Notes: generated by a model from the letters alone, not told the origin. DNA of 64,000 nt from Dehalococcoidia bacterium (GCA_965197585.1 OZ240215.1:3328001-3392000); one strand, 5' to 3'; shown: positions 5,351 to 58,770, counted from the stretch's first letter. Numbers and translations are program-made.

Positions 5351-5463
5351 CCGTCTGTCCCATCGCCTCTCACTGTGAGACATTTGGCAAACTCGCTCAC
5401 ATACCTTGGGTGAGGTGTCCTGTCCCCTCTCCCTCGATGTGACCTTTGCATAACTGTCATTCC

Positions 5464-6519
5464 TGTAAGTGTTAGGTAATTCGTTGACAGATTGGTATAA
5501 GAGGCCAACACCAATCTGGAGGCGAGAATGCGAGACAATAGCAAGGACCTCACCCTTGAGCGGAACTACATTCAGAAGTGGCGGTTCCTCATCCATGAGT
5601 ATCAACTGGTCAAGGCAGGGAAGCATCCCCGTTTCCGCTTCGCCCAGGACTTCTACTCCTTCCACGGCACTAGCCGTCAGACCTTCGCCAAGTACTACAA
5701 CCGGTTCCTCCTTTCCCCCTCCGACAACGCCTTCCTCCCCCGTAAGCGGGGTCCCGGGTGGAAGTCCCGCCGCACCCTGCCCTACATTGAGCAGAAGGTC
5801 ATCAACGAGCGCCTTAACGGTACCAACCGTTACGAGATCTATGCCATACTCAAACCCATCCTTAAACACAACACCCCTAAGCCCTCCACCATCTACGCCA
5901 TCACCAGACGCCACGGTTTCAATAGGCTCACAAAGCCGATGCAGCAGTCGAAGCGCAAGATCATCAAGACCCGGGCAGGAGAGCTGGGCCACCTGGACAG
6001 CCACTACCTCAGCCGGGATACCATCGTGGGCACCAAGCACCGCTACTACCTGGTGGGCCTCATCGACGCCTACACCCGTCTGGCCTGGGCCGAAGTGGTC
6101 GGAGACATCAAGAGTCTCTCCGTTATGTTTGCTACTCTGAAGTCCATCAATTTCCTTAACGTGGAGTACGGCATCCAATTCGAGGCCATCCTCACCGACA
6201 ACGGCCCCGAGATGGCCTCCCCAAGGAACACCGAGGGCCACCCCATGGAACGGATGCTCAATGAGCTGGGCATAAAGCACCGCTACACCCGCCCTTATAG
6301 GCCCCAGACCAACGGGAAGATAGAGCGGTTCTGGAGAACCTTGAACGAGGACCTGCTGGAGGGGACAACCTTCGAATCGGTCTCGGAACTGAAGGACGAG
6401 CTTCAGCAATACCTGATCTACTACAATACTCAGAGACCCCACCAGGCAATGGACGGAAAGACCCCTTTGGAGACCCTTAAATCCACCTAATTCTGTCAAC
6501 GAATTACCTGACATCCACA
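5464..6519 (+). mobile_element. IS481-family insertion sequence
   Basis: TGT...ACA ends; imperfect ~28 bp IRs (TGTAAGTGTTAGGTAATTCGTTGACAGA / TCTGTCAACGAATTACCTGACATCCACA); 5-bp direct repeat ATTCC at 5459-5463 and 6520-6524. Confidence 0.92.
5528..6490 (+). CDS. IS481-family DDE transposase (rve integrase core)
   Basis: GELGHLD, ILTDNGPE, TRPYRPQTNGKIERFWRTL, YYNTQRPHQ. Confidence 0.95.
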   Translation: MRDNSKDLTLERNYIQKWRFLIHEYQLVKAGKHPRFRFAQDFYSFHGTSRQTFAKYYNRFLLSPSDNAFLPRKRGPGWKSRRTLPYIEQKVINERLNGTNRYEIYAILKPILKHNTPKPSTIYAITRRHGFNRLTKPMQQSKRKIIKTRAGELGHLDSHYLSRDTIVGTKHRYYLVGLIDAYTRLAWAEVVGDIKSLSVMFATLKSINFLNVEYGIQFEAILTDNGPEMASPRNTEGHPMERMLNELGIKHRYTRPYRPQTNGKIERFWRTLNEDLLEGTTFESVSELKDELQQYLIYYNTQRPHQAMDGKTPLETLKST

Positions 6520-6604
6520 ATTCCGAGACTCCGCGAGGAATCTGGGGCGAGGGGCTCAGGATTGGATAACATGTCTCGTATTGCCAATATGTTCCAGCAT
6601 AGGG

Positions 6605-20216: not shown

Positions 20217-20569
20217 AACTCGCCTCCAGCCATATTCTCCCTGTCCCTAATCATATAACGATAACGTTGCCCAAAATGTTCCATTCCGCCTTACCCTAAG
20301 CCTTTCCTGATACCCTTGAGCATACTTCAGGCTCATCGAAAAGGGACGGCAAAGCAGTGCCACCCATCAATAACGCGCCGTTTATATATGAGGCTCTACT
20401 CCGTTTATGTAAGTGAAAGACTATCGGGGTTGTCGCTCAACAGGCCTCGCCTTCCAGGCATTTGACTCGCTATAATCTCGGGAGCAAGCCTTCTTGTGCC
20501 TGAATCGTATCGCTTTGCTTGACATCGAATCTGCAAAATGCTAACTTTCACTGACAAATTTAAAAGTGA

Positions 20570-20810
20570 AAGGCTGAGAAGAGGAGTAGTAGGAATACCG
20601 AAAACCTCTAGAGAGCCGGGGTAAGGTGAAAGCCCGGCGGTCGTAGGTTTCCGAACTCGCCTCAGAGCTGCCAATCCGAAAGCCGTATGTCGGCAAGTAA
20701 TTTTGGCCGGTTGACAACCGTTACAGGTCCTGAGATCTTCTGGCGTGCCGGGAGATGAAGAAGGGTGGTACCGCGGATTCTCCGCCCCTTTAGGGGTGGG
20801 GATTTTTTTT
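20570..20810 (+). promoter_or_regulatory. T-box riboswitch leader (Leu specifier CTC) with terminator
   Basis: Stem I with AGAGA and GGTGAAA motifs; GAA-CTC specifier at ~20653; T-box AAGGGTGGTACCGCG at ~20761; hairpin followed by T8. Confidence 0.9.
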
Positions 20811-31186: not shown

Positions 31187-32410
31187 CTACCTCCTAATGA
31201 TCATGGCGCTGCTCTCGGTCTCCGTGCCCCAGGCGAGACACGCGGCGATCTCAGCCTTCTTCAGCTGGCGGCAACCCTTGTTTCGGTCATAAGTGTGCTT
31301 TCCCTCCCGCCAACCGGGGCACGAGTCGTCGGTACGATGTCTTAGCTGGCGGACATTCTCGATGACCATCGCTATGCCGTGCGTGTAGCCTTCGGACAGG
31401 TGCCCTCCCGAGAGATTGGACGGCAGCTTACCGTCGATCTGAAGAGTGCCTCCCTCTACGAAGGGCCCGATCTCGCCCTCAGGCGCGAAGCCGTAACCTT
31501 CCAGCAGGATAAGGGATGTAAATGTGAAGGCGTCATAAGCAGATACAAAGTCGATGTCGTCGTGCGTGACGCCCGACATGCCAAAGAGCCGCTTTCGCCC
31601 GTAGTTCGCGCCCACGTAGTGGATCTTTTCCCTGTTCCACCTGTAGGACGCGTCCGGCGTCTGTGTGCGGGCGGTGCCGCCCATGATGAAGACCGGGGGT
31701 TGCTTCAGGTTATAGGCCCACTCCCTCGGCGCGACGATGATGGCTGCAGCTACGTCGGTCTCCAGGCAGCAGTCGAATAGGCGGAAAGGTTTGGCCACCC
31801 AGCGGCCTTTCAGATAATCGTCCATAGTCAGGGGGCGGTCATAGAAAATGGACTTCGGGTTGAGGTTGGCGTGCCTGCGGTGAGCTACGGCCACCTCACC
31901 TAGATGCCGGGAGGTGAGCCCATAGTCGTGCATGTATCTCATGCACGTGAGCCCGTGGTGCTGGGCGGGAGTTGTGAAGCCCCACGCATCCCACATGTCT
32001 CCGATACTGGATACCGAGGTCACGGGTGCTGGACCGTCCGGGTCCTGACCCCCGAACCGCAGCCCCGACCGCCCGTTCATCGACCGGAAAATCACCATAT
32101 TCTGGCAATAGCCTGCTTCAATAAGACCAATGGCGTGGGCAACAAGGGTCTCGGTGCTGTTCCCACCCCCAATGATGTCGACGGCATAGTCGAGGCGAAT
32201 GCCAAGGGACGAGGCGACTTCGCTGGAATCACTGGAGTCAGCGTACTGATACGATGTCATGCCACTGATATCCGAGGGTTCGAGCCCCGCGTCGGCCATA
32301 GCGTTCTTCACGGCCTCACAGGCCATGGACAGGGTGGTCCGGTTAGATGGGCGCATGTGGGGAGTCTCCCCCACGCCTACGATGCAATATTTGTCCGTTA
32401 GTGCTCCCAC
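31187..32410 (-). CDS. Thiolase-like protein (Ltp2/SCP-x type)
   Basis: CIVGVGET, RSMNGRSG, LFDCCLETD, YDAFT, SGGHLSEGYTHG. Confidence 0.9.
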   Translation of the reverse strand: MGALTDKYCIVGVGETPHMRPSNRTTLSMACEAVKNAMADAGLEPSDISGMTSYQYADSSDSSEVASSLGIRLDYAVDIIGGGNSTETLVAHAIGLIEAGYCQNMVIFRSMNGRSGLRFGGQDPDGPAPVTSVSSIGDMWDAWGFTTPAQHHGLTCMRYMHDYGLTSRHLGEVAVAHRRHANLNPKSIFYDRPLTMDDYLKGRWVAKPFRLFDCCLETDVAAAIIVAPREWAYNLKQPPVFIMGGTARTQTPDASYRWNREKIHYVGANYGRKRLFGMSGVTHDDIDFVSAYDAFTFTSLILLEGYGFAPEGEIGPFVEGGTLQIDGKLPSNLSGGHLSEGYTHGIAMVIENVRQLRHRTDDSCPGWREGKHTYDRNKGCRQLKKAEIAACLAWGTETESSAMIIRR

Positions 32411-32417
32411 TCTACCA

Positions 32418-33641
32418 CTACCTCCTGAGAATCATTGCGCTGCTCTGTGCCTCGAAAGACCAGGCCAGGCAGGCGGCGATGTCTGCTTTCTTCAATTGGC
32501 GGCATCCTTTGCTCCGGTCATATGTGTGTATCCCCTCGCGCCATCCGGGACAAGCGTCGTCCGCCCGATGCCTAAGCTGCCGCACGTTCTCTACTACCAT
32601 TGCTATGCCGTGAGTGTAACCCTCCGACAGGTGACCACCCGACAGATTCGAAGGAAGCTTGTTGTCGATTTGTAGCGTCCCACCCTCGACAAAGGGTCCG
32701 ATCTCCCCTTCTGGTGCGAATCCGAAAGCCTCCAGCAGGATGAGAGAGGTGAAGGTGAAGGCGTCATAAGCGGATACAAAGTCGATATCGTCGTGACTAA
32801 CCCCCGACATCCCGAAGAGCCGCTTCCGCCCATAGTTGCCACCGACGTAGTGAATCTTGGGCATTCCCCATGGAAACGCGGCACCTGGCGCCTGCACCCT
32901 TGCCGTGCCACCCATAATGAACACCGGAGGTTGCCTCAAATTGTACGCCCACTCCCGGGGCGCGACGATTATCGCCGCCGCAACGTCGGTCTCCAGGCAG
33001 CAGTCAAACAGGCGGAACGGCTTGGATATCCATCGGCCTTTCAAATAGTCGTCCATTGTCAATGGCTTGTCGTAGAAGACCGCCTTTGGGTTCAAGTTCG
33101 CATGTTTGCGATGCGCTACTGCCACCTCCCCGAGGTGCCGAGAGGTGAGGCCATAGTCATGCATATATCTCATGCAGGTCAGGGAATGGTGTTGAGCAGG
33201 CGTGGTAAAGCCCCACGTCTTGGTCATGTCACCCATGTTTCTAATGGCAGGTACAGACGCCGATCCCCCGGGGTCCTGCCCCCCCGGCCTCCGCCCCGAA
33301 CGGCCGTTCATGGAGCGGAAAATAACCATGTTGCGGCAATACCCCGCCTCGATCAGGCCTATAGCGTGGGCCACGAGCGCCTCGGTGCTGGAGCCTCCTC
33401 CCATTATGTCCATGGAGTAGTCCAGGCGCATGCCCAGAGCGGAGCCAACGTCCTTGGAGGGAGAGGAATCGAACGCTTGGTAGGAGGTCATCCCGCTGAT
33501 CTCGGTGTGATCGAGACCCGCGTCGGCCATAGCATTACGCACGGCTTCGCAGGCCATGGAAAGCGTAGTTCGGTTGGAGGGACGCCTGTGGGGAGTCTCT
33601 CCAACCCCTACGATGCAGTACTTGTCAGTCAGGGCTCCCAA
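32418..33641 (-). CDS. Thiolase-like protein (tandem paralog)
   Basis: Same motifs as 31187-32410, highly similar. Confidence 0.9.
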   Translation of the reverse strand: MGALTDKYCIVGVGETPHRRPSNRTTLSMACEAVRNAMADAGLDHTEISGMTSYQAFDSSPSKDVGSALGMRLDYSMDIMGGGSSTEALVAHAIGLIEAGYCRNMVIFRSMNGRSGRRPGGQDPGGSASVPAIRNMGDMTKTWGFTTPAQHHSLTCMRYMHDYGLTSRHLGEVAVAHRKHANLNPKAVFYDKPLTMDDYLKGRWISKPFRLFDCCLETDVAAAIIVAPREWAYNLRQPPVFIMGGTARVQAPGAAFPWGMPKIHYVGGNYGRKRLFGMSGVSHDDIDFVSAYDAFTFTSLILLEAFGFAPEGEIGPFVEGGTLQIDNKLPSNLSGGHLSEGYTHGIAMVVENVRQLRHRADDACPGWREGIHTYDRSKGCRQLKKADIAACLAWSFEAQSSAMILRR

Positions 33642-33680
33642 AGCGCCACAACCTTAAACTATTTGGGGCAATAGTTAAAG

Positions 33681-34430
33681 CCTCTGTACTCGTTCGGTAG
33701 ATTAGTGACACACCGGCCTTTTCTTCAGTTGTGGGTTTCGGTTTCCGTTCTGTCTGTTAGGTTTTGGGTTGGCGATGGAAGACGCCCATTTGGCAGAGCT
33801 GCTTGTACGTGGACTTGCAGCCAGTATGCCCTGATGCTAGATGGTATACACGGACAATTCTCGGGCCAGACGTCCGGCAGAGGCTCCTTATGGGGGCTGT
33901 ATGCCCGTGGGGGCACGTCGGGGCCAGGGATCCAGCTGTGCGAGGCCCCACAGCCTAACTAATAGTGTCCAAGTTCGCCGGAAAAGGACAGGAGCGAATA
34001 TCCTCCGGGCACCCCCGCGCCGCAGCGCCAATCTCCAGCAATGCGGCCCGACGTTCGAGACGGTTCTCCATGGGGGTTAGGCGGTCCGCGGAGCGTATGC
34101 TCTGGTCACCCTTGATGCAATCTCCCGTACAGGGAGCAGGGTGGGAGCGTGAAGGCCAGGGCGTCTTTCCATCGCCTGGGGATCAGGGAAGGGGGCACGG
34201 GACCCGTGGGATGAGGAGATGGCGTCGTTTGCTTGTGCCGCGGGCCTGCGCGAGGGCCGTTGGGATGGGCTGAGGCGTTGAGTCCTCGGGTGGGTCGAGT
34301 GTGGGCTTCCCTGGGTTGTGGTTCCTCCTTAAGGTAGTTGGGTTAGGTGGTCTAGACCTGCCTACAATATAGAACATAAGTACTTATAATGTCAAGGGGG
34401 TGATGTCACCCCTCTATGTGAACGGGATCA
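33681..34430 (-). ncRNA. Putative large structured RNA/element, copy A, with its own promoter
   Basis: Inverted homolog of 37077-37930; no conserved ORF; conserved nested stems; TTGACA-N18-TATATT promoter. Confidence 0.6.
34366..34395 (-). promoter_or_regulatory. Sigma70 promoter with LexA-like box in the spacer
   Basis: TTGACA (34390-95) and TATATT (34366-71); GAAC-ATAA-GTAC at 34372-34383. Confidence 0.65.
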
Positions 34431-34442
34431 GCCTCACCGCAG

Positions 34443-35744
34443 TCACGGAATGTGAGGCGCGGGCTCCGTGCCTATGTGCCCCTCTTCCTCCAGCCGTTCG
34501 TAACGCTCGGCGTCGTATCCCAGCAGCTCCTTGTATACGTACTCGTTTCCATAGCCCAGGTGAGCGGGCGGCTTCCGAATGGCGTTGGGTGTCCTGGCCA
34601 TCTTCCACATGAACCCGACATGATCGTGAGTCCCGAGATCGGGATCATTGACGGTCTGGAAGAACCCGCGGGCCTTGATATGAGGATCGGCATGGACGCT
34701 CTTTTCATCGAGGACGGGTGCAGCCGCCACCCCGGCACCCTGTAGCCGACCCGTCACTTCGTACTGGGTGAGGGTTTGAGTCCACTGGTTTAGGCTTTGG
34801 TCCAACTCTTCCTGGTTGTGCCACCTCCCGAGCACAGTACGGAACCTTTTCTCTCCGGTCCACTCCGGGTTGCCGAGTGCCTGGCACAGCCCGTCCCACT
34901 CGGAGTCGCTGCCTACAGAAATCGCTACCCATGAGTCCGGGCCCTTGCACCGGTATACACCGTGGGGCGCCATCGATGTATGCCCGTTGCCCAACGAAGA
35001 TCGCACCCTGCCGTTCATCGTGTAGTCTATTATCGGAGCGGCTAGGCTGGGTATGAAGTTCTCGCACAGCGGTATTTCGATGAGCTGTCCTTCACCCGTT
35101 AGATTGCGATGCCTGATAGCCATCGATACAGCTAGAACGGCGCTGTAGGCCGCCCCGGAATCGCTCTGGTTGGACTCGGGACGTTGTGATATGTCCGTGT
35201 CCCGGTACCCCTTTAGCCAGCTATGCCCAGCTACCCCTTCCACGTGCTGACCCCAGGATCGGTATCTGTGGTATTTGCCGTCCAGCCCAAACGCAGGCAT
35301 CCTGACCATGATCAGTCCGGGATTGTGCTTCTTTAGCTCGGAGTAGACCAACCCAAGCTTCTTCATGGTGTCCGGCATATTATTCTCGATGAACACGTCC
35401 GACTTGGATATCAGGTCCTTGAATATCTCCAACCCCTCGGGGCGCGTAACGTCGACTGTCATGCTCGATTTGTTTCGGGCGTGAGTGTTGAACAACGCCC
35501 CCCTATCCCACGCCCGACTCTCCGGGTACCGGCCCGCATAACCGTACCCCATATCTATCATCACCTTGAAATACTCGCTGCTGGGCCTCATCAAGCCCGT
35601 CCGAGTCGTCGTGCCCAGGAACTGGGTCGACTCTACGCGGATCACGTCCGCGCCCCAATCGGCCAATATCTGGCTGGAGTGAGGCCCGGCCCACACCACG
35701 GTGATTTCCAGGACCCTTATCCCCTCAAGGGGTAACTTCGCCAA
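34443..35744 (-). CDS. CaiB/BaiF family III CoA-transferase
   Basis: LEGIRVLE...WAGP...GADVIRVE, RNKSS, APHGVYRCKG.D.WVAI. Confidence 0.92.
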   Translation of the reverse strand: MAKLPLEGIRVLEITVVWAGPHSSQILADWGADVIRVESTQFLGTTTRTGLMRPSSEYFKVMIDMGYGYAGRYPESRAWDRGALFNTHARNKSSMTVDVTRPEGLEIFKDLISKSDVFIENNMPDTMKKLGLVYSELKKHNPGLIMVRMPAFGLDGKYHRYRSWGQHVEGVAGHSWLKGYRDTDISQRPESNQSDSGAAYSAVLAVSMAIRHRNLTGEGQLIEIPLCENFIPSLAAPIIDYTMNGRVRSSLGNGHTSMAPHGVYRCKGPDSWVAISVGSDSEWDGLCQALGNPEWTGEKRFRTVLGRWHNQEELDQSLNQWTQTLTQYEVTGRLQGAGVAAAPVLDEKSVHADPHIKARGFFQTVNDPDLGTHDHVGFMWKMARTPNAIRKPPAHLGYGNEYVYKELLGYDAERYERLEEEGHIGTEPAPHIP

Positions 35745-35762
35745 TATATACCTCTCCAGACT

Positions 35763-37007
35763 CTATGCAGTGCCCGACTGCCTGAGCCTGGCAAGCTCTT
35801 CCTTGCTGTAGCCCAAGATTCCGCAATACACGTCCTGGTTGTGCTCCCCTATCCTCGGGGCAGGGGAATGCAGCCGCCACGGCGTGCGGTACATCTTCAA
35901 AGGCCTGCCCGGCATCGTCATCTCCCCCATCACCGGGTGTTGCATTCGGGCCCACATGCCCCGTTCCCAGAAATGCTCGTCCTTTAGAAGGTCTTCCGTC
36001 GTGTTCACTACTCCCGATAGCACTCGCTTCTGCTGTGCCGTCTCCCATACGTCCAACTTGGATTGGGAGTAAAGCCAGGATATGACCAGCGCCGAAATCT
36101 CTTCTATGTTGGCTGGGTCCCGCCTGCCCTCGGGAGTGTTGAACCTTGGGTCATCCATTAGGTCTTCACGCTCGATCATAGAGCAGACCCGATCAAAGCC
36201 AAACTCTCCGCCCAACAGGTTGATATAGCCGTCTGCGCAGGGAAAGGGCCCCGACCCTATGCCCATGTGGTCCAGGTTCCTGTCCCCGACCACACCTGTA
36301 TACGAATACGCCAGCAGCTTCGCAGCCCGCCGGTCTATATTCCCCAGTTGCACTTCCGACGCTGCAATGTCGATATAGTCACCCACCCCCGAGGCCTCTG
36401 CCCTGCGAAACGCGACCATACCCGCCGCGGCAGCTGCCAGCCCCGTGTGTAGGTCCACTACGTTGTTAGCGGAGTTGACTGGCTCTCGCTCCGGTTGACC
36501 GGTGAAGTACATCGGCCCGCCGAACGCGTAGGGCTGTATCTCATGGCTCTTGTAGTCCCTGTACGGCCCACTCTGCCCGAATGGCGTGATGGACACAGCC
36601 ACGAGCGCTGGATTAGCGGCCTCAATCTCCTCGTACGGGAATCCGAGGCCGTCCAATACCCCCGCCCCCAGCCCCTCCACCAGGATGTCCGCCCAGGAAA
36701 GCAGCCCACGAAAGACCTTCTGCCCGTGCCCCGAGTCCAAGTTCAGGGTTACGCCCTTCTTGTTGACGTTGAGGTACTGGAATAGTCCGCTGGTCTCGGA
36801 ATGTGGTAGATCACCGGAGAACGGCCCCGATCTCCGCAGCGGATCACCATCTAAGGGCTCTACCTTGATAACCTCTGCCCCAAAGCAGGCCATAAGTTTG
36901 CCGCTGTGAGCGGGGGGGATACCGTGGCCCAAGTCCAGGACTTTTACGCCGTCCAGGGCTTTGGGTGGAAGAAGGGGGTCTGCACTATGGGTTTGCTGTT
37001 CCAGCAA
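35763..37007 (-). CDS. CaiB/BaiF family III CoA-transferase
   Basis: ALDGVKVLDL, GAEVIKVEP..GDPLR, NKKGVTLNL, PFGQSGPY. Confidence 0.92.
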   Translation of the reverse strand: MLEQQTHSADPLLPPKALDGVKVLDLGHGIPPAHSGKLMACFGAEVIKVEPLDGDPLRRSGPFSGDLPHSETSGLFQYLNVNKKGVTLNLDSGHGQKVFRGLLSWADILVEGLGAGVLDGLGFPYEEIEAANPALVAVSITPFGQSGPYRDYKSHEIQPYAFGGPMYFTGQPEREPVNSANNVVDLHTGLAAAAAGMVAFRRAEASGVGDYIDIAASEVQLGNIDRRAAKLLAYSYTGVVGDRNLDHMGIGSGPFPCADGYINLLGGEFGFDRVCSMIEREDLMDDPRFNTPEGRRDPANIEEISALVISWLYSQSKLDVWETAQQKRVLSGVVNTTEDLLKDEHFWERGMWARMQHPVMGEMTMPGRPLKMYRTPWRLHSPAPRIGEHNQDVYCGILGYSKEELARLRQSGTA

Positions 37008-37076
37008 GGTCGGTCACGAGGTGAGGGCGGGGTTTCCGGATTGTCGGCGATTATAGCATCGCCGCTTGTGGCAGGG

Positions 37077-37930
37077 TGATCCCGTGCACATAGAGAGTGA
37101 CATAACCCTCTTGACAGTGAAGTACTTATGTTCTATATTGGTGCCAGGTCTAGACCACCTAACCCAACCACCTTAAGGAGGAACCAAAAACTAGGGAAGT
37201 CCACTCGACCCACCCGAGGACTCAACGTCTAAGCCCATCCCAACGGCCCTCGCGCAGGCCCGCGGCACAAGCGAAAGTCGCCATCTCCTCATCCCGCGGT
37301 CCCGTGTCCCCTTCCCTGACCCCCAGGCGATGGAAGAAGCCCTGGCTTTCTACTCCCACCCCTCCCCCACCATCCCCCCATCATTCCAGCCTCCAGGCCG
37401 GAATCCAGAGACGGGGTGCACAGGGAGATTACAACAAGGGTGAAAGGAGATGTACTCGCGGACCGTTTGACCCCCATAGAGAACCGTCTCGAAGTTCGGA
37501 CCGCAATGCAAGAGTTAGCGCGCTACGGCGAGGGGGTGCCGGAGGATTTGCTCCGTATCGCTCCGGCAATCTAGGACAAATATAGTTAGGCTGTGGGGCC
37601 ACAGCTGGATTCCCTGGCCCCCGTCGTGCCCATAGCGGCATACAGCCCAAGAATGGAGCCTCTGACGGACATCCTGCCCTGGATCGGTCCGTGCATATAA
37701 TCGAGCAAAGGGCACGGCCGGCTGTAAGTCCCTCCCTCTCAGGCGGGGCCTGCTCTCCAGGTCCCCCCGACAGCCGGAACACCCGCAAAGAGAGAATGCA
37801 AAGCCACTTAGAGGGCAAAAGGGCGTCTTTCATCGCCAACCCAAAACCCAACAGACGGAACTGAAACCGAAACTCCACAACTGAATAAAAAGCCAGCGGG
37901 TCACTAACCTACCGAACGTGTACACAGGGT
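37077..37930 (+). ncRNA. Putative large structured RNA/element, copy B, with its own promoter
   Basis: Homolog of copy A; TTGACA-N17-TATATT; long-range stem 37326-37343/37820-37837; CCACAACTGAATA at ~37875. Confidence 0.6.
37111..37139 (+). promoter_or_regulatory. Sigma70 promoter with LexA-like box in the spacer
   Basis: TTGACA gtgaa GTAC-TTAT-GTTC TATATT. Confidence 0.65.
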
Positions 37931-37996
37931 TTAGGTATACCCCGTCCGTCTGCTAAAATCAGCCTGTCCTAAGCACATCAACGCCGAGGCACAGCC

Positions 37997-38770
37997 ATGG
38001 GTTTCGCGACGGTCGAAGGCAGAAACATCCACTATCAGTTTCCGGCACAGGCCGAGGCCCGCGTCCGCCAGGGGCACAACGTCCTGATGGTCCACGGCGC
38101 CGTCGACAACCATCGGGTCTGGAGACACCAGCACGCCTACCTGGAACGCGACCACACTCCCCTGGCCATCGATCTGCCCGGTCACGGCGACTCCCAGGGC
38201 CCGCCCATCGACAGTCCCGCCGACTTCCGACATTTCATCAAGGCATTCGTGGACGTTATGGACCTCCCGCCCTTCGTTTTCGCTGGGCATTCCATGGGCG
38301 GCTCCATGGCCTTGGACTACGCCATCCACCACCCCGATGACGTGAAGGGCCTCATCCTGGTAGGCGCGGGCGCCCATTGGGAGCTGTCTTCTGAGCACCT
38401 GGAGCTCTGGACCACCGACCCCGAGCGTGCCCAGCGTGAAAACGTCGCCCTCCTTTTTTCCAAGAAGACCTCCCAGCGCCTCGTCGAAGAATACGCCAAA
38501 CAGCTCGCTGCCCAGGGACCCAGGACCTGCACCGCAGACTTCCTCAACTGCGACAGATACGACCTCCTCGACAAAATCAATCAAATCAGCGTCCCGACCC
38601 TAGTCGCCGCTGGTGATGAAGAAGAGTGGCTCGAGAATTCACGCGAAATCCACGCCAGTTCCATGAAAACCACCTTCGAGATAATAGCTGCCGCGGGCCA
38701 CGCCGTAATGATCGAGCAACCCGCCCTGCTGAACGAGGCCATTGGGGCCTATCTTGCCACCCTGTCCTGA
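37997..38770 (+). CDS. Alpha/beta hydrolase
   Basis: VHGA, DLPGHGDS, GHSMGG, AGH. Confidence 0.92.
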   Translation: MGFATVEGRNIHYQFPAQAEARVRQGHNVLMVHGAVDNHRVWRHQHAYLERDHTPLAIDLPGHGDSQGPPIDSPADFRHFIKAFVDVMDLPPFVFAGHSMGGSMALDYAIHHPDDVKGLILVGAGAHWELSSEHLELWTTDPERAQRENVALLFSKKTSQRLVEEYAKQLAAQGPRTCTADFLNCDRYDLLDKINQISVPTLVAAGDEEEWLENSREIHASSMKTTFEIIAAAGHAVMIEQPALLNEAIGAYLATLS

Positions 38771-38806
38771 CTACCGATAGAAGATTAGCCAACTGCCCTG
38801 GGGGAA

Positions 38807-39580
38807 GTGATGACACACATACAGGTAAATGGAAAACGAGCCTTCTACGCATCCCCTCATGATGTGGCCGGCGGTGACCGCCGGGGGAAGACGGTTTTAT
38901 TGGTGCACGGGGCACGGAGCAATCACCGGATTTGGGCGCCGCAGCTACAGGCTCTTGCCCGCCGACATACGCCCATAGCCATGGACCTTCCCGGCCACGG
39001 AGACTCCGAGGGCCCGGGTTCGACGAACGTCTCGGAGTACCGTGACTTCGTCAAGGCCCTCGTAGACGCCCTGGGAATCGAAAGTTTCGTGATAGCCGGC
39101 CACTCGATGGGCGGCTCCATCGCCCTCGACTACACGCTCAACTACCCGGGCGTCGAGGCCTATATCCCTGTAGGATCTGCCCCCCAATGGAACATCGACG
39201 AGGACTACATCGACATCTACCGCACGGATCCCGAGAAGGCTATCAAGGAAAGCGCAGGGCGCAACTTCTCGAAGAGCACCCCCAGGGCCATCGTCGAACT
39301 CAACGAATGGAACAACAAATCGACGCCCATGGAGGTCGGAATCGGAGACCTGGAAGCCTGCAACGCCTTCAACCAGGCCCCCCGCCTCGCCGATGTAAAG
39401 GTCCCGACCTGCGTGATTTGCGGTGAGGAAGACCTTTACGTCGATGGTTCCCAGGCCCTGCATGACGGAATATCGGGCTCCCAGGTGCACTGGATAAAAA
39501 ACGCCGGCCACGACCCGTCCATAGAGCAGCCCCTGGCCACCAACAAGATACTTCTGGACTTCCTAGGCTCCCTGGCTTAG
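38807..39580 (+). CDS. Alpha/beta hydrolase (paralog of upstream gene)
   Basis: VHGA, DLPGHGDS, GHSMGG, AGH. Confidence 0.92.
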   Translation: MMTHIQVNGKRAFYASPHDVAGGDRRGKTVLLVHGARSNHRIWAPQLQALARRHTPIAMDLPGHGDSEGPGSTNVSEYRDFVKALVDALGIESFVIAGHSMGGSIALDYTLNYPGVEAYIPVGSAPQWNIDEDYIDIYRTDPEKAIKESAGRNFSKSTPRAIVELNEWNNKSTPMEVGIGDLEACNAFNQAPRLADVKVPTCVICGEEDLYVDGSQALHDGISGSQVHWIKNAGHDPSIEQPLATNKILLDFLGSLA

Positions 39581-39676
39581 GTGACAACATACTTGGTATC
39601 GGCCAAATGACCAGCCACCCCCATATGTTAAGATGCACCGCAGTCTCGTGAGATTTCACCACAGGAGGCCCGAGCG

Positions 39677-42551: not shown

Positions 42552-42627
<76 letters not shown>

Positions 42628-57820: not shown

Positions 57821-58770
57821 TTATTCAGTTGTGGGGGGAGGGGTTGAGGGTATGGGCTGTTGGGCGGTTCCTTTGGTGGGTATGAATGGGGGAGTTTTGA
57901 TTGATGCGCGGACCCAGGCGTGAGGTCTGATTGTTTTGCGGGAAGAGTCCGCTTTTCCCTGGATTGAGGGGGCCGGGGAGGTGGAGGGGATGGAAGGTCC
58001 CGGACGGTTGCGCAGGAAGGCGGCGACGCCTGTACCGATGGGTGTTGTCCGCGACAGCGGATGTTCCACATCGAAGCCGGCTTTGCGACAGCCCCGAACT
58101 TCTGAGAGGACGTGGTGGAGACGCGCGATGGGCTCGCGGTGGGGCGGTCTCCACCACCAGAAGTGCTCGACCACCCTAAGGGATGGGAGCGTGGACCCGT
58201 GACCGGCGTTCGTAGTCGGAAGTTCTCCGGTTGTGACGACGGTGGAATCCTTAAATGGTGCGTTGGTTTTGAGTCGGCGCTCATCCGACTGTTCGGACTC
58301 GCCAGCAAGGTCTAGGCCGGGGGAGTCCGGAGGGGGCGCTATGGCCCAAGGTGGAGACATGACGCTGTGCTCCAGGGCGTCGCCTGAGGAGGCGAAACGG
58401 ATGCGCCGGGTGAGTGCAGCGCGCACTTGGCATTGGCCCTTGGAAAGGGCAAGCCGGTTTTTGTCCGGGAACCTTCCATGGCGGGTCACGTGGACCTGTG
58501 GGGACAGTGATTGATCGCTGCTGAGGCGGAGGCGATGGGCCTTGGGGCAGCGCTTGAAGTGGGGGAAGTAGGGTGGAAAGAGGCAGGAAAAGAGACGCGT
58601 GCCTGTGGCCGGGCGGTCCCATACCGCTCGGGTGTGACGGGGCCTATGAAGGCTATTGCGACTCATGGGACTCCTTTAATCCTTTTCCTTGAATAGGGCC
58701 GACGTGGGGTGTCGGGCCTGGCAGGCAATATAGTACAGGTGTTTTGATTTGGTCAAGGGGTTCGTGTCAC
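57821..58770 (-). other. Copy C of the promoter/structured-element family; spans a 281-codon ORF (57821-58666)
   Basis: GTGACA..CCCC-TTGACC-N18-TATATT-GCCTGCCAGG; AAAGGAG RBS; long-range stem ATGGAAGGTTCCCGGAC/GTCCGGGACCTTCCAT; ends CCACAACTGAATAA. Confidence 0.5.

Follow-up and report, generated by a model that had tools for sequence, protein, structure and literature searches.

The window analysed here, a stretch of 64,000 nucleotides from a Dehalococcoidia bacterium genome (GCA_965197585.1 OZ240215.1:3328001-3392000), contains two homologous sequences in opposite orientation, here called copy A (746 nt, 33685-34430, minus strand, with predicted transcription toward lower coordinates) and copy B (848 nt, 37077-37924, plus strand, 5'-TGATCC...GTACA-3'). 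The boundaries of both were derived from filled and empty sites and from target-site duplications. Two CoA-transferase family III genes lie between the copies (34443-37007); a thiolase-like gene (32418-33641) follows copy A and an alpha/beta-hydrolase gene (37997-38770) follows copy B, each beyond a resident promoter-like site. The sequence-only reading from which this analysis started described inverted homologues over 33681-34430 and 37077-37930, coordinates that come close to the derived element boundaries, and the homology is confirmed: 13 inverted-repeat pairs connect 33666-34434 with 37073-37943, and pairwise alignment gives a mean column identity of 83% with many substitutions and frame-breaking indels of 1, 2, and 4 nt. 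The idea of a pair has to be given up, since an nhmmer search with the 5' domain found 57 copies in the 3.43-Mb genome, a large repeat family.

Copy B, which lies on the plus strand, can be described from end to end. A left target-site duplication, CAGGG (37072-37076), precedes a left end (37077-37108) that consists of a putative, imperfect terminal inverted repeat and contains a GTGACA box at 37097-37102, followed by a sigma-70-type promoter of the element's own (37111-37139; TTGACA, 17 nt, TATATT; 11/12 consensus matches). The conserved 5' domain (37153-37325), the part matched by nhmmer in all 57 copies and used to build covariance model R1, includes helix P1 (37194-37199 with 37311-37316), helix P2, a GAGGA/UCCUC helix, a variable hairpin, and an insertion-tolerant loop. 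It also holds a Shine-Dalgarno-like AAGGAGG (37175-37181) that is near-invariant in alignment A2 and, as first noticed in the two copies, lacks a start codon: ATG, GTG, or TTG occurs 4-14 nt downstream in 0/57 copies. A long-range closing helix, whose inner part covaries between subfamilies, joins a 5' arm at 37326-37343 to a 3' arm at 37820-37837 (18 nt, 89% complementary), and encloses a variable middle (37344-37819) with a nested insertion at ~37370-37421. This insertion had been described as REP-containing and as lying in a hairpin loop; the extra segment is a REP-like repeat present at many other loci. A CA-rich, G/U-poor tail (37838-37892) leads into the right end (37893-37924, ...GTCACTAACCTACCGAACGTGTACA), whose terminal 16-mer adjoins 24/57 copies, and then come the right duplication, again CAGGG (37925-37929), and a resident promoter-like site read from sequence (37930-37959; TTTAGG, 18 nt, TAAAAT).

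Copy A repeats this plan on the minus strand. Its promoter-end duplication (34431-34435) reads GCCTC on the plus strand, or GAGGC in element orientation, and is matched by GCCTC at the right end (33680-33684). The promoter has TTGACA at 34395-34390, an 18-nt spacer, and TATATT ending at 34366; the closing helix pairs 34159-34176 with 33771-33787, where it had been placed at the outset; and beyond the right duplication lies another promoter-like site read from sequence (33651-33679; TTTAAC, 17 nt, TAAGGT).

Several signals point to mobility. Each copy has a 5-bp target duplication of its own, perfect (5/5) for both, and among the 14 family copies in which both ends can be recognised the 5-nt direct repeat is perfect in seven and matches at 4/5 positions in four. 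Copy A is missing from three relatives: G002, where the junction is precise and a single GCCTC remains, G005, and G003. Copy B is missing, with its flanks joined, from G003, G001, and G007, and the empty sites in G003 and G001 have a single duplication unit (TTGTGGA-C/TGGGG-TTTAG). G005 carries an element at the site orthologous to copy B, with the same duplication and a middle of a different type. The tips are 5'-TG...ACA-3', and the consensus left end, compared by eye with the reverse complement of the right end, shares the pattern TG..C.CGTTC..TAGA..GTGACA, about 20/31 columns with one gap; in copy A a repeat finder returned only 13-nt subterminal arms at 77%. The element contains no transposase gene, its internal ORFs being without Pfam match. 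A and B are thus very probably separate insertions, oppositely oriented, of a DNA transposon that is non-autonomous and MITE-like but large. Identity between copy B and the other copies in the genome is 74-91%, which gives no sign that the family is active at present. The dispersed copies, target-site duplications, putative inverted-repeat ends, and empty sites do not fit two ncRNA genes standing on their own.

Family members are ~735-885 bp long. The -35 region CCCCTTGAC and a TA-rich -10 align across all 57 copies, and the 3' arm of the closing helix was located in 57/57, forming duplexes of 15-24 bp at -26.8 to -38.9 kcal/mol. The 5' domain and tail are conserved across the family while the middle diverges; middles vary from 300 to 540 nt between the closing-helix arms and group into 13 clusters, and a profile of one type picks up only some of the others. 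Base composition in the 50 nt past the 3' arm, over the 57 copies, is A 43.6%, C 38.9%, G 9.4%, and T 8.0%. The left-end 19-mer is present in 14-15/57 copies, and the 43 putatively mobile copies without two recognisable ends carry different upstream modules. With BLAST, many copies were found in 8/8 other species of the genus and one weak match among 32 other genomes; with model R1, six of 151 genomes of the class Dehalococcoidia were positive, all six within the genus, and none of the other 145. A scan of genome contigs with the element gave matches only in records named "MAG: Dehalococcoidia bacterium." Among the genomes searched, the element is confined to one genus of uncultured Dehalococcoidia.

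The right flanks share a further feature. In 37 unique flanks, a count in which flanks common by descent between species may be included more than once, positions +6 to +10 read T33 T31 G32 A27 C26. TTG occurs at the +6 offset in 26/37 and at 14 other offsets in 0-1; TTGAC follows the duplication directly in 26-27/37; and TAnnnT lies 16-19 nt beyond the TTGAC(A/C) hexamer in 33/37. Judged by these motifs, the right end of the element in the flanks examined sits exactly 5 bp upstream of a predicted resident sigma-70 promoter and always points at the gene. All copies with an intact left end (15/15) face a co-oriented gene within 1 kb, as do 29/42 of those without one. The downstream genes are diverse, encoding among others UvrA, LeuRS, a class Ic synthetase (Glu/Gln-tRNA synthetase), and Amidohydro_2 proteins. 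Placement beside the -35 hexamer could partly reflect the survival of insertions rather than targeting. An autonomous insertion sequence in the same genomes, IS_d, shows the same geometry, with 5 nt and then TTGAC past its end in six of seven readable right junctions, so that two unrelated elements follow one rule and insert in a single orientation with a -35 hexamer 5 bp downstream.

A comparison with five IS families, in this genome and at a small number of loci in relatives, revealed no autonomous partner whose ends match. IS_d has a 423-aa transposase with only a weak match, to the IS481 model best, and was rejected as partner because its ends are unlike those of the element in spite of the similar target geometry. 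The abundant, IS481-like IS_A has the IS ends that best match the right end of the element (score 11/32; 18/30 end positions in common), and was rejected because it targets REP sequence and not TTGAC.

The initial proposal was that selection acts on a large structured RNA, and parts of it survive. There is no shared ORF, the three longest ORFs within the copies being without Pfam match, and no known RNA family was recognised: cmscan of 33000-38500 against 4227 Rfam 15 models, with an E-value limit of 10, gave a single match, a spurious one at E = 5.5, and at Rfam gathering thresholds the whole window yielded only a T-box and two tRNAs located elsewhere. Pairing in the 5' domain has been kept through compensatory change. 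In 87 distinct sequences from related species, both sides change in 16/26 pairs (113 compensatory cells). Slid controls gave 6-7 pairs and 8-37 cells, and 0/500 shuffles reached the observed value. The share of paired cells is 92%, compared with 38-67% in the controls. These counts come from alignment A3, which was fitted to the model, and so lean toward structure. Selfish spread of DNA alone would leave the compensatory pair changes unexplained. In the closing helix, an arm folds with its own partner at a mean of -13.1 kcal/mol and with partners from other subfamilies at -9.2. The compensatory changes show that the fold is of consequence for those lineages of the element which have multiplied. 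The free-standing gene pair fell away from the proposal, and covariation in the middle is weak (5/99 predicted pairs; covariation term -0.94). A structurally selected large RNA is possible, but it would belong to a transposable element or travel with one.

One alternative, which overlaps in part with the transposon explanation, is that the selected product is a new large structured ncRNA of ~650-750 nt, expressed from its own promoter and acting in trans or in cis, with mobility only its vehicle. The compensatory changes in the 5' domain and closing helix favour it, as do the promoter conserved in all copies, the conservation of 5' domain and tail around a divergent middle, and the lack of an ORF or Rfam family. 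Against it, beyond the bias of A3 and the weak covariation of the middle, the copies are not "highly base-paired" in the thermodynamic sense first claimed, with MFE z-scores over 20 shuffles of -1.20 for the plus strand and +0.66 for the minus strand, and there is no excess of G-U over A-C (57 vs. 55), the sign expected of an RNA made from one strand. Over 37243-37865, two RNA libraries gave contigs with depths of 2-72. Relative to DNA runs this is not above the neighbouring gene, DNA carry-over could account for it, and contigs show neither ends nor strand. Further, seven Amidohydro_2-type paralogue genes follow six different middle types, and so gene and middle are not linked. On balance we regard an ncRNA product as rather unlikely.

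A giant riboswitch or attenuator leader, with a regulon of ~40 operons answering to one signal, would fit the 44/57 copies that have a co-oriented gene downstream. An invariant CUCCUC can pair either with the unused AAGGAGG or with GAGGA, a possible switch, and the C-rich, G-poor tail and the presence of a Rho gene point the same way. However, the genes that follow are unrelated in function, with housekeeping genes among them, 13 copies have no co-oriented gene, the same genes operate in sister species that lack the element, and no ligand-pocket-like invariant core was identified, all of which makes this explanation quite improbable. That the copies are decayed protein-coding genes, such as transposase or small-protein remnants, is highly improbable: ORFs of 85-149 codons do occur on both strands, but they differ between copies and have no Pfam matches, close relatives are separated by 1-, 2-, and 4-nt indels, and no start codon follows the ribosome-binding-like box. 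A composite transposon or inverted segmental duplication carrying the two CoA-transferase genes, suggested by the inverted copies on either side of them, is contradicted and scarcely credible, because the matching duplications are GAGGC/GAGGC for A and CAGGG/CAGGG for B, with none common to both, G003 has the genes at the locus with neither copy, and G002 and G005 carry B without A.

The best reading, which we consider likely, is a promoter-hunting transposon that is non-autonomous and brings a promoter and a structured leader to the gene behind it. A transposase acting in trans would select the -35 region, perhaps by contacting a protein bound there, as has been proposed for ISAjo2-type insertion sequences and XerC. 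Once inserted, the conserved promoter of the element would fire and produce a C-rich transcript of a predicted ~650-750 nt, comprising the 5' domain with its unused Shine-Dalgarno-like box, the closing helix around the fast-diverging middle, and an unpaired CA-rich tail. This transcript would either continue past the resident promoter and form a long structured leader for the gene, or end at the tail, a plausible Rho loading site. Insertion is presumably tolerated, even upstream of uvrA, leuS, and the Glu/Gln-tRNA synthetase gene, because the resident promoter stays intact. The role of the fold could lie in transcript stability, in control of read-through, or in transposition. A stronger version, which we consider unlikely, is that a promoter-targeting system, reading the -35 edge possibly through sigma factor or RNA polymerase, plants a functional large folded RNA and so provides mobile, genus-wide promoter-plus-leader control over dozens of genes, among them housekeeping genes; there, the fold may aid target choice or limit harm, for example through a Rho-dependent stop at the CA tail.

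Targeted insertion of the Tn7-like kind was compared in general, and the closest likeness is to the ISAjo2-type insertion sequences (IS1202 family, "dif-site hunters"). According to their published description, these encode a TnsB-like transposase of 441-457 aa and insert so that a XerC site adjoins the duplication. Both they and the element show target duplications of 5 bp, tips of the form 5'-TG(T)...ACA-3', a single orientation, and a duplication that separates the end from a short site bound by protein, XerC there and the -35 here. Imperfect terminal inverted repeats that contain a repeated box are a further likeness, though for the element a tentative one. Unlike them, the element has no transposase ORF and its site is a promoter -35 hexamer, not dif. 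Lacking a TnsB-like ORF, it could use such an enzyme only as a passenger, and no IS1202-type transposase linked to the element was found, the transposase of IS_d matching the IS481 model best.

The Correia repeat-enclosed elements (CREE) of Neisseria are ~5-8 times smaller and make a TA duplication. The literature on them describes an ability to supply a promoter to a neighbouring gene and a transcript helix open to RNase III. Like them, the element is non-autonomous, multi-copy, and intergenic, can supply a promoter, and has a perfect to near-perfect helix, here of 15-24 bp; unlike them, its promoter is complete and internal, its multi-helix domain shows compensatory changes, its duplication is 5 bp long, and its target is precise, at the edge of a promoter. 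The large RNAs OLE, ROOL, GOLLD, HEARO/omega RNA, and raiA resemble it in size class, lack of an ORF, and a multi-helix fold with some covariation, and differ in that the element has no Rfam match, bears target duplications, and occurs in one genus. The yeast retroelement Ty3 is promoter-targeting, and under the stronger version considered above the element would be its bacterial counterpart. "Mobile promoters" are described as highly similar promoter-bearing sequences upstream of unrelated genes (PMC3575422); here, by comparison, the vehicle, the insertion signature, and the rule for the target have been defined, and a predicted structured region of ~700 nt accompanies the promoter. In word searches of open-access text, neither this family nor bacterial insertion directed at the -35 region turned up.

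Targeting of this kind, if real, is a natural means of setting a promoter and leader before genes while leaving those genes unbroken, and it would explain ~1% of a small genome as repeats upstream of essential genes. An orphan-RNA candidate becomes a testable mobile element. The case also carries a caution for ncRNA discovery in MAGs, where pairing and the lack of an ORF are insufficient without copy number and insertion signatures.

The two homologous stretches of the window, copy A (33685-34430, minus strand) and copy B (37077-37924, plus strand), are, as judged from their sequence, both copies of a large non-autonomous transposon that hunts promoters. Its identity as a mobile element and the geometry of its target are supported directly by sequence. 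The element is predicted to bring a promoter of its own and to be transcribed into a long, structured RNA that covaries in part. The sequence-only reading had described the stretches as inverted and homologous over their whole length, broken by indels, and as resembling no known RNA. This description is correct: 13 inverted-repeat pairs join 33666-34434 to 37073-37943, copy A (reverse-complemented) aligns to copy B (forward) at 83% mean column identity with numerous short indels, and cmscan against Rfam finds no family match in the region at E values up to 10, save one spurious match at E=5.5. At Rfam gathering thresholds the whole window yields only a T-box leader (20567-20792, 115 bits) and two tRNA genes (2399-2470 and 42552-42624), all elsewhere than the element copies. 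The two stretches are homologous as proposed, but they are not simply a pair: BLAST of copy B against its own 3.43 Mb single-contig genome returns 63 matches, and iterated nhmmer searches with the element's 5' part give 57 hits.

A single architecture is common to all 57 copies. It comprises a conserved promoter region (…GTGACA-N8-CCCC TTGAC, a spacing of about 17-18 nt and a TA-rich -10), an AAGGAGG about 35 nt past it, a ~180-nt 5' domain, a 5' helix arm (GGCGATGGAAG…), a middle that is 295-535 nt long, the matching 3' helix arm (…CTTCCATCGCC), and a ~50-nt tail rich in A (43.6%) and C (38.9%) and poor in G (9.4%) and T (8.0%). The middles fall into 13 clusters (12, 10, 7, 6, 6, 6, 3, and 2 members plus five singletons), and a profile of the largest picks up just three of the others. 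They do not form an invertible phase switch, as there are no minus-strand matches among them, and they are not captured or antisense gene fragments, as their matches outside the family are confined to nested repeats and partial copies. Partial or divergent middles and one 3' half, all with an undetectable 5' domain, occur at 2280503-2280800, 2872693-2872967, 3062300-3062585, and 3315803-3316206 of the same contig, so the family exceeds the 57 copies counted. Upstream of 13 copies (loci L131, L134, and L144 among them) lies a further conserved module of about 200 nt, which contains a REP, a long GC-rich hairpin with a stem that varies in sequence between copies yet stays complementary, a terminator-like T-rich run, and another hairpin, this one perfect (CCCCCTCTCCCTTA…TAAGGGAGAGGGGG). 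A different repeat (~220 nt) is found at window 58098-58320, nested in the middle of the element copy e2178968+, and at about eight other loci.

Evidence for insertion comes from a comparison of window 31200-39600 with five sister species of the genus, in which the flanking gene order is kept and the elements are missing. Copy A is missing in G002, G005, and G003, and copy B in G003, G001, and G007; the B site is occupied by an element in G002 and G005. In element orientation the junctions of copy A read …CTGCGGT GAGGC TGATCCCGTTCAC … CGAACGAGTACA GAGGC TTTAAC…, with a single GAGGC in G002, and those of copy B read …TTGTGG CAGGG TGATCCCGTGCAC … CGAACGTGTACA CAGGG TTTAGG…, where G003 and G001 have TTGTGGA-C/TGGGG-TTTAG. 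A 5-nt direct repeat flanks copies in this genome that have both ends recognisable, perfectly in seven of 14 and with a 4/5 match in another four. The element tips are 5'-TG…ACA-3', and the left and right ends are imperfect inverted repeats of each other that contain an inner GTGACA box. No gene lies inside the element: a Pfam search of the longest ORFs gave no match, these ORFs vary between copies, and close relatives are separated by indels of 1, 2, and 4 nt, so a protein-coding reading was rejected. On these grounds the element is a non-autonomous transposon. A composite transposon enclosing the two CoA-transferase genes is ruled out by the separate duplication at each copy and by relatives that have the genes but lack one or both copies.

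The G005 element at the B site has the same duplication as copy B but resembles it only over the first ~300 nt (89%), and its interior is 88% identical to that of another copy in the window's genome, e2539425+. Differing interiors at one site indicate that copies trade interiors, presumably through gene conversion across the conserved sequences on either side. Of the 43 copies that lack a recognisable left end, a sample was compared with sister species: the one ahead of uvrA is missing in G003 along with ~800 nt more, and the one ahead of leuS is common to G002, G003, and G005.

The target was defined from all right ends with at most two mismatches and ending in CA, gathered from this genome and 80 sister-species loci. 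Across the resulting 37 unique flanks, among which a flank passed down to several species may be represented repeatedly, the bases right after the 5-nt duplication are T (33), T (31), G (32), A (27), and C (26). In 26 of the 37 flanks TTG occupies precisely this offset, compared with 0-1 at each of 14 other offsets, and a TAnnnT hexamer follows 16-19 nt further on in 33. These counts place the element immediately upstream of a sigma-70-type promoter, right at its edge and facing it, and because empty sites already hold the hexamer, it is part of the target and not of the element. Survival of harmless insertions could sharpen the -35 pattern. A co-oriented gene lies within 1 kb ahead of all 15 copies with a left end and of 29 of the 42 others. 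The genes served are unrelated, and include UvrA, leucyl-tRNA synthetase, class Ic Glu/Gln-tRNA synthetase, Amidohydro_2 paralogues, and transporters; within the window, copy A precedes a thiolase-like gene and copy B an alpha/beta hydrolase gene. Each of these two genes belongs to a tandem pair, one of two 407-aa thiolase-like genes (31187-33641, 74-78% DNA identity) and the other of two 257-aa alpha/beta hydrolases (37997-39580). With replication orientation assigned by a strongly one-sided cumulative GC skew (minimum at 2.65 Mb, maximum at 1.06 Mb), 21 of the 57 copies are co-directional.

The genome has 29 integrase-core (rve) loci, and two insertion sequences were weighed as mobilisers of the element. 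The first, IS_d (~1.3 kb, with a 423-aa rve transposase), is present once in the window's genome, once in G001, and in ten full copies, 99% identical, in G005. Its loci (L224, at 659342-660640 of the window's contig, and L225-L235) lie for the most part within the element family's promoter, in a fixed orientation. In 10 of 12 copies the GTGACA…CCCC box of that promoter region forms the left flank, and six of the seven readable right junctions run from the IS end through 5 duplicated nt to TTGAC. IS_d thus shares the target geometry of the element, but its tips are unlike the element's, and we rejected it as mobiliser; the junctions instead indicate two different elements obeying one rule, insertion 5 bp upstream of the -35. 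The second, IS_A, is the commonest rve element (1056 bp, about 22 copies), with a 320-aa transposase whose best match, IS481 at 184 bits, is under the curated cut-off; the window holds one such IS481-like copy at 5456-6525 (transposase 5528-6490). Copies are 89-99.9% identical, most above 99%, which suggests a recent burst. IS_A has TGT…ACA tips, and its left end agrees with the element's right end at 18 of 30 positions, the best of 20 comparisons. The ends are partly alike, but IS_A always targets a REP-like palindrome (GTCATTCC…GGAAT), duplicating ATTCC (5 bp) and not adjoining TTGAC, and it too was rejected. [quoted passage not shown] They have TGT/ACA tips, encode a TnsB-like transposase, and have been proposed to make contact with XerC bound at the site.

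The sequence-only reading had taken the stretches for a highly base-paired RNA under selection for its structure. Folding energy alone gives no support to the first part: for the predicted 760-nt plus-strand transcript of copy B the computed energy is -263.8 kcal/mol (z = -1.20, from 20 dinucleotide shuffles) and the opposite strand has z = +0.66, neither being significant. RNAalifold on plain MAFFT alignments of the 57 copies, or of the 5' domain, gave poor consensus structures because subfamilies were misaligned in the covarying helices. Six 5'-domain helices were therefore set by hand and used to build a covariance model, R1, to which 89 sister-species matches were aligned. In this alignment, whose fitting to R1 favours the structure, 92.2% of cells are paired (38-67% with slid partners), 16 of 26 pairs are changed on both sides (6-7 in slid controls), as are 113 cells (8-37), and values as high as these arose in 0 of 500 shuffles. 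All 57 copies have the closing helix. Its inner 16 nt bind their own partner more strongly (-13.1 kcal/mol) than the partners of other subfamilies (-9.2), a preference seen in 12 of 13 subfamilies. Compensatory change is scarce in the middles of the 12-member subfamily to which copies A and B belong: just five of 99 pairs predicted there by RNAalifold have one. Nor do the 5'-domain mismatches discriminate between strands: G-U (57) and A-C (55) are equally frequent, which is no proof of constraint acting on plus-strand RNA. The main argument for such constraint is the conserved upstream promoter.

Two metatranscriptome runs, labelled sponge metagenome, gave contigs over 37243-37865 and the downstream gene. 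These contigs cannot show transcript ends, and, set against DNA runs, RNA-library depth over the element does not exceed that over the gene, a level that DNA carry-over could explain. How the target is recognised, what becomes of the transcript, and what the fold might do are matters of inference; the transcript may act as a leader or end as a Rho-terminated RNA, and the genome has a Rho gene.

Word searches of open-access literature returned related concepts, but neither this family nor -35-directed insertion was described there. By BLAST, the 5' part occurs in all eight other species of the genus and was not found in three other genera of the family or in 28 of 29 other families sampled, with one weak match. 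R1 matches are found in six of 151 genomes of the class, each from the genus. An exact-pattern scan had no match in viral contigs, found at least 92 stretches in 185,579 species genomes (all 'MAG: Dehalococcoidia bacterium' among the matches listed), and matched five short contigs of one assembly in a metagenome collection. Outside the window, at 3404961-3405100 of the same contig, a lone 38-nt left end of the element directly joins a TTGCGA-N17-TAAAAT promoter. Next come an inverted repeat (TTAGCACTC-N9-GAGTGCTAA), which we take to be CIRCE-like, and a gene pair that is chaperonin-like as read from the N-terminus only.
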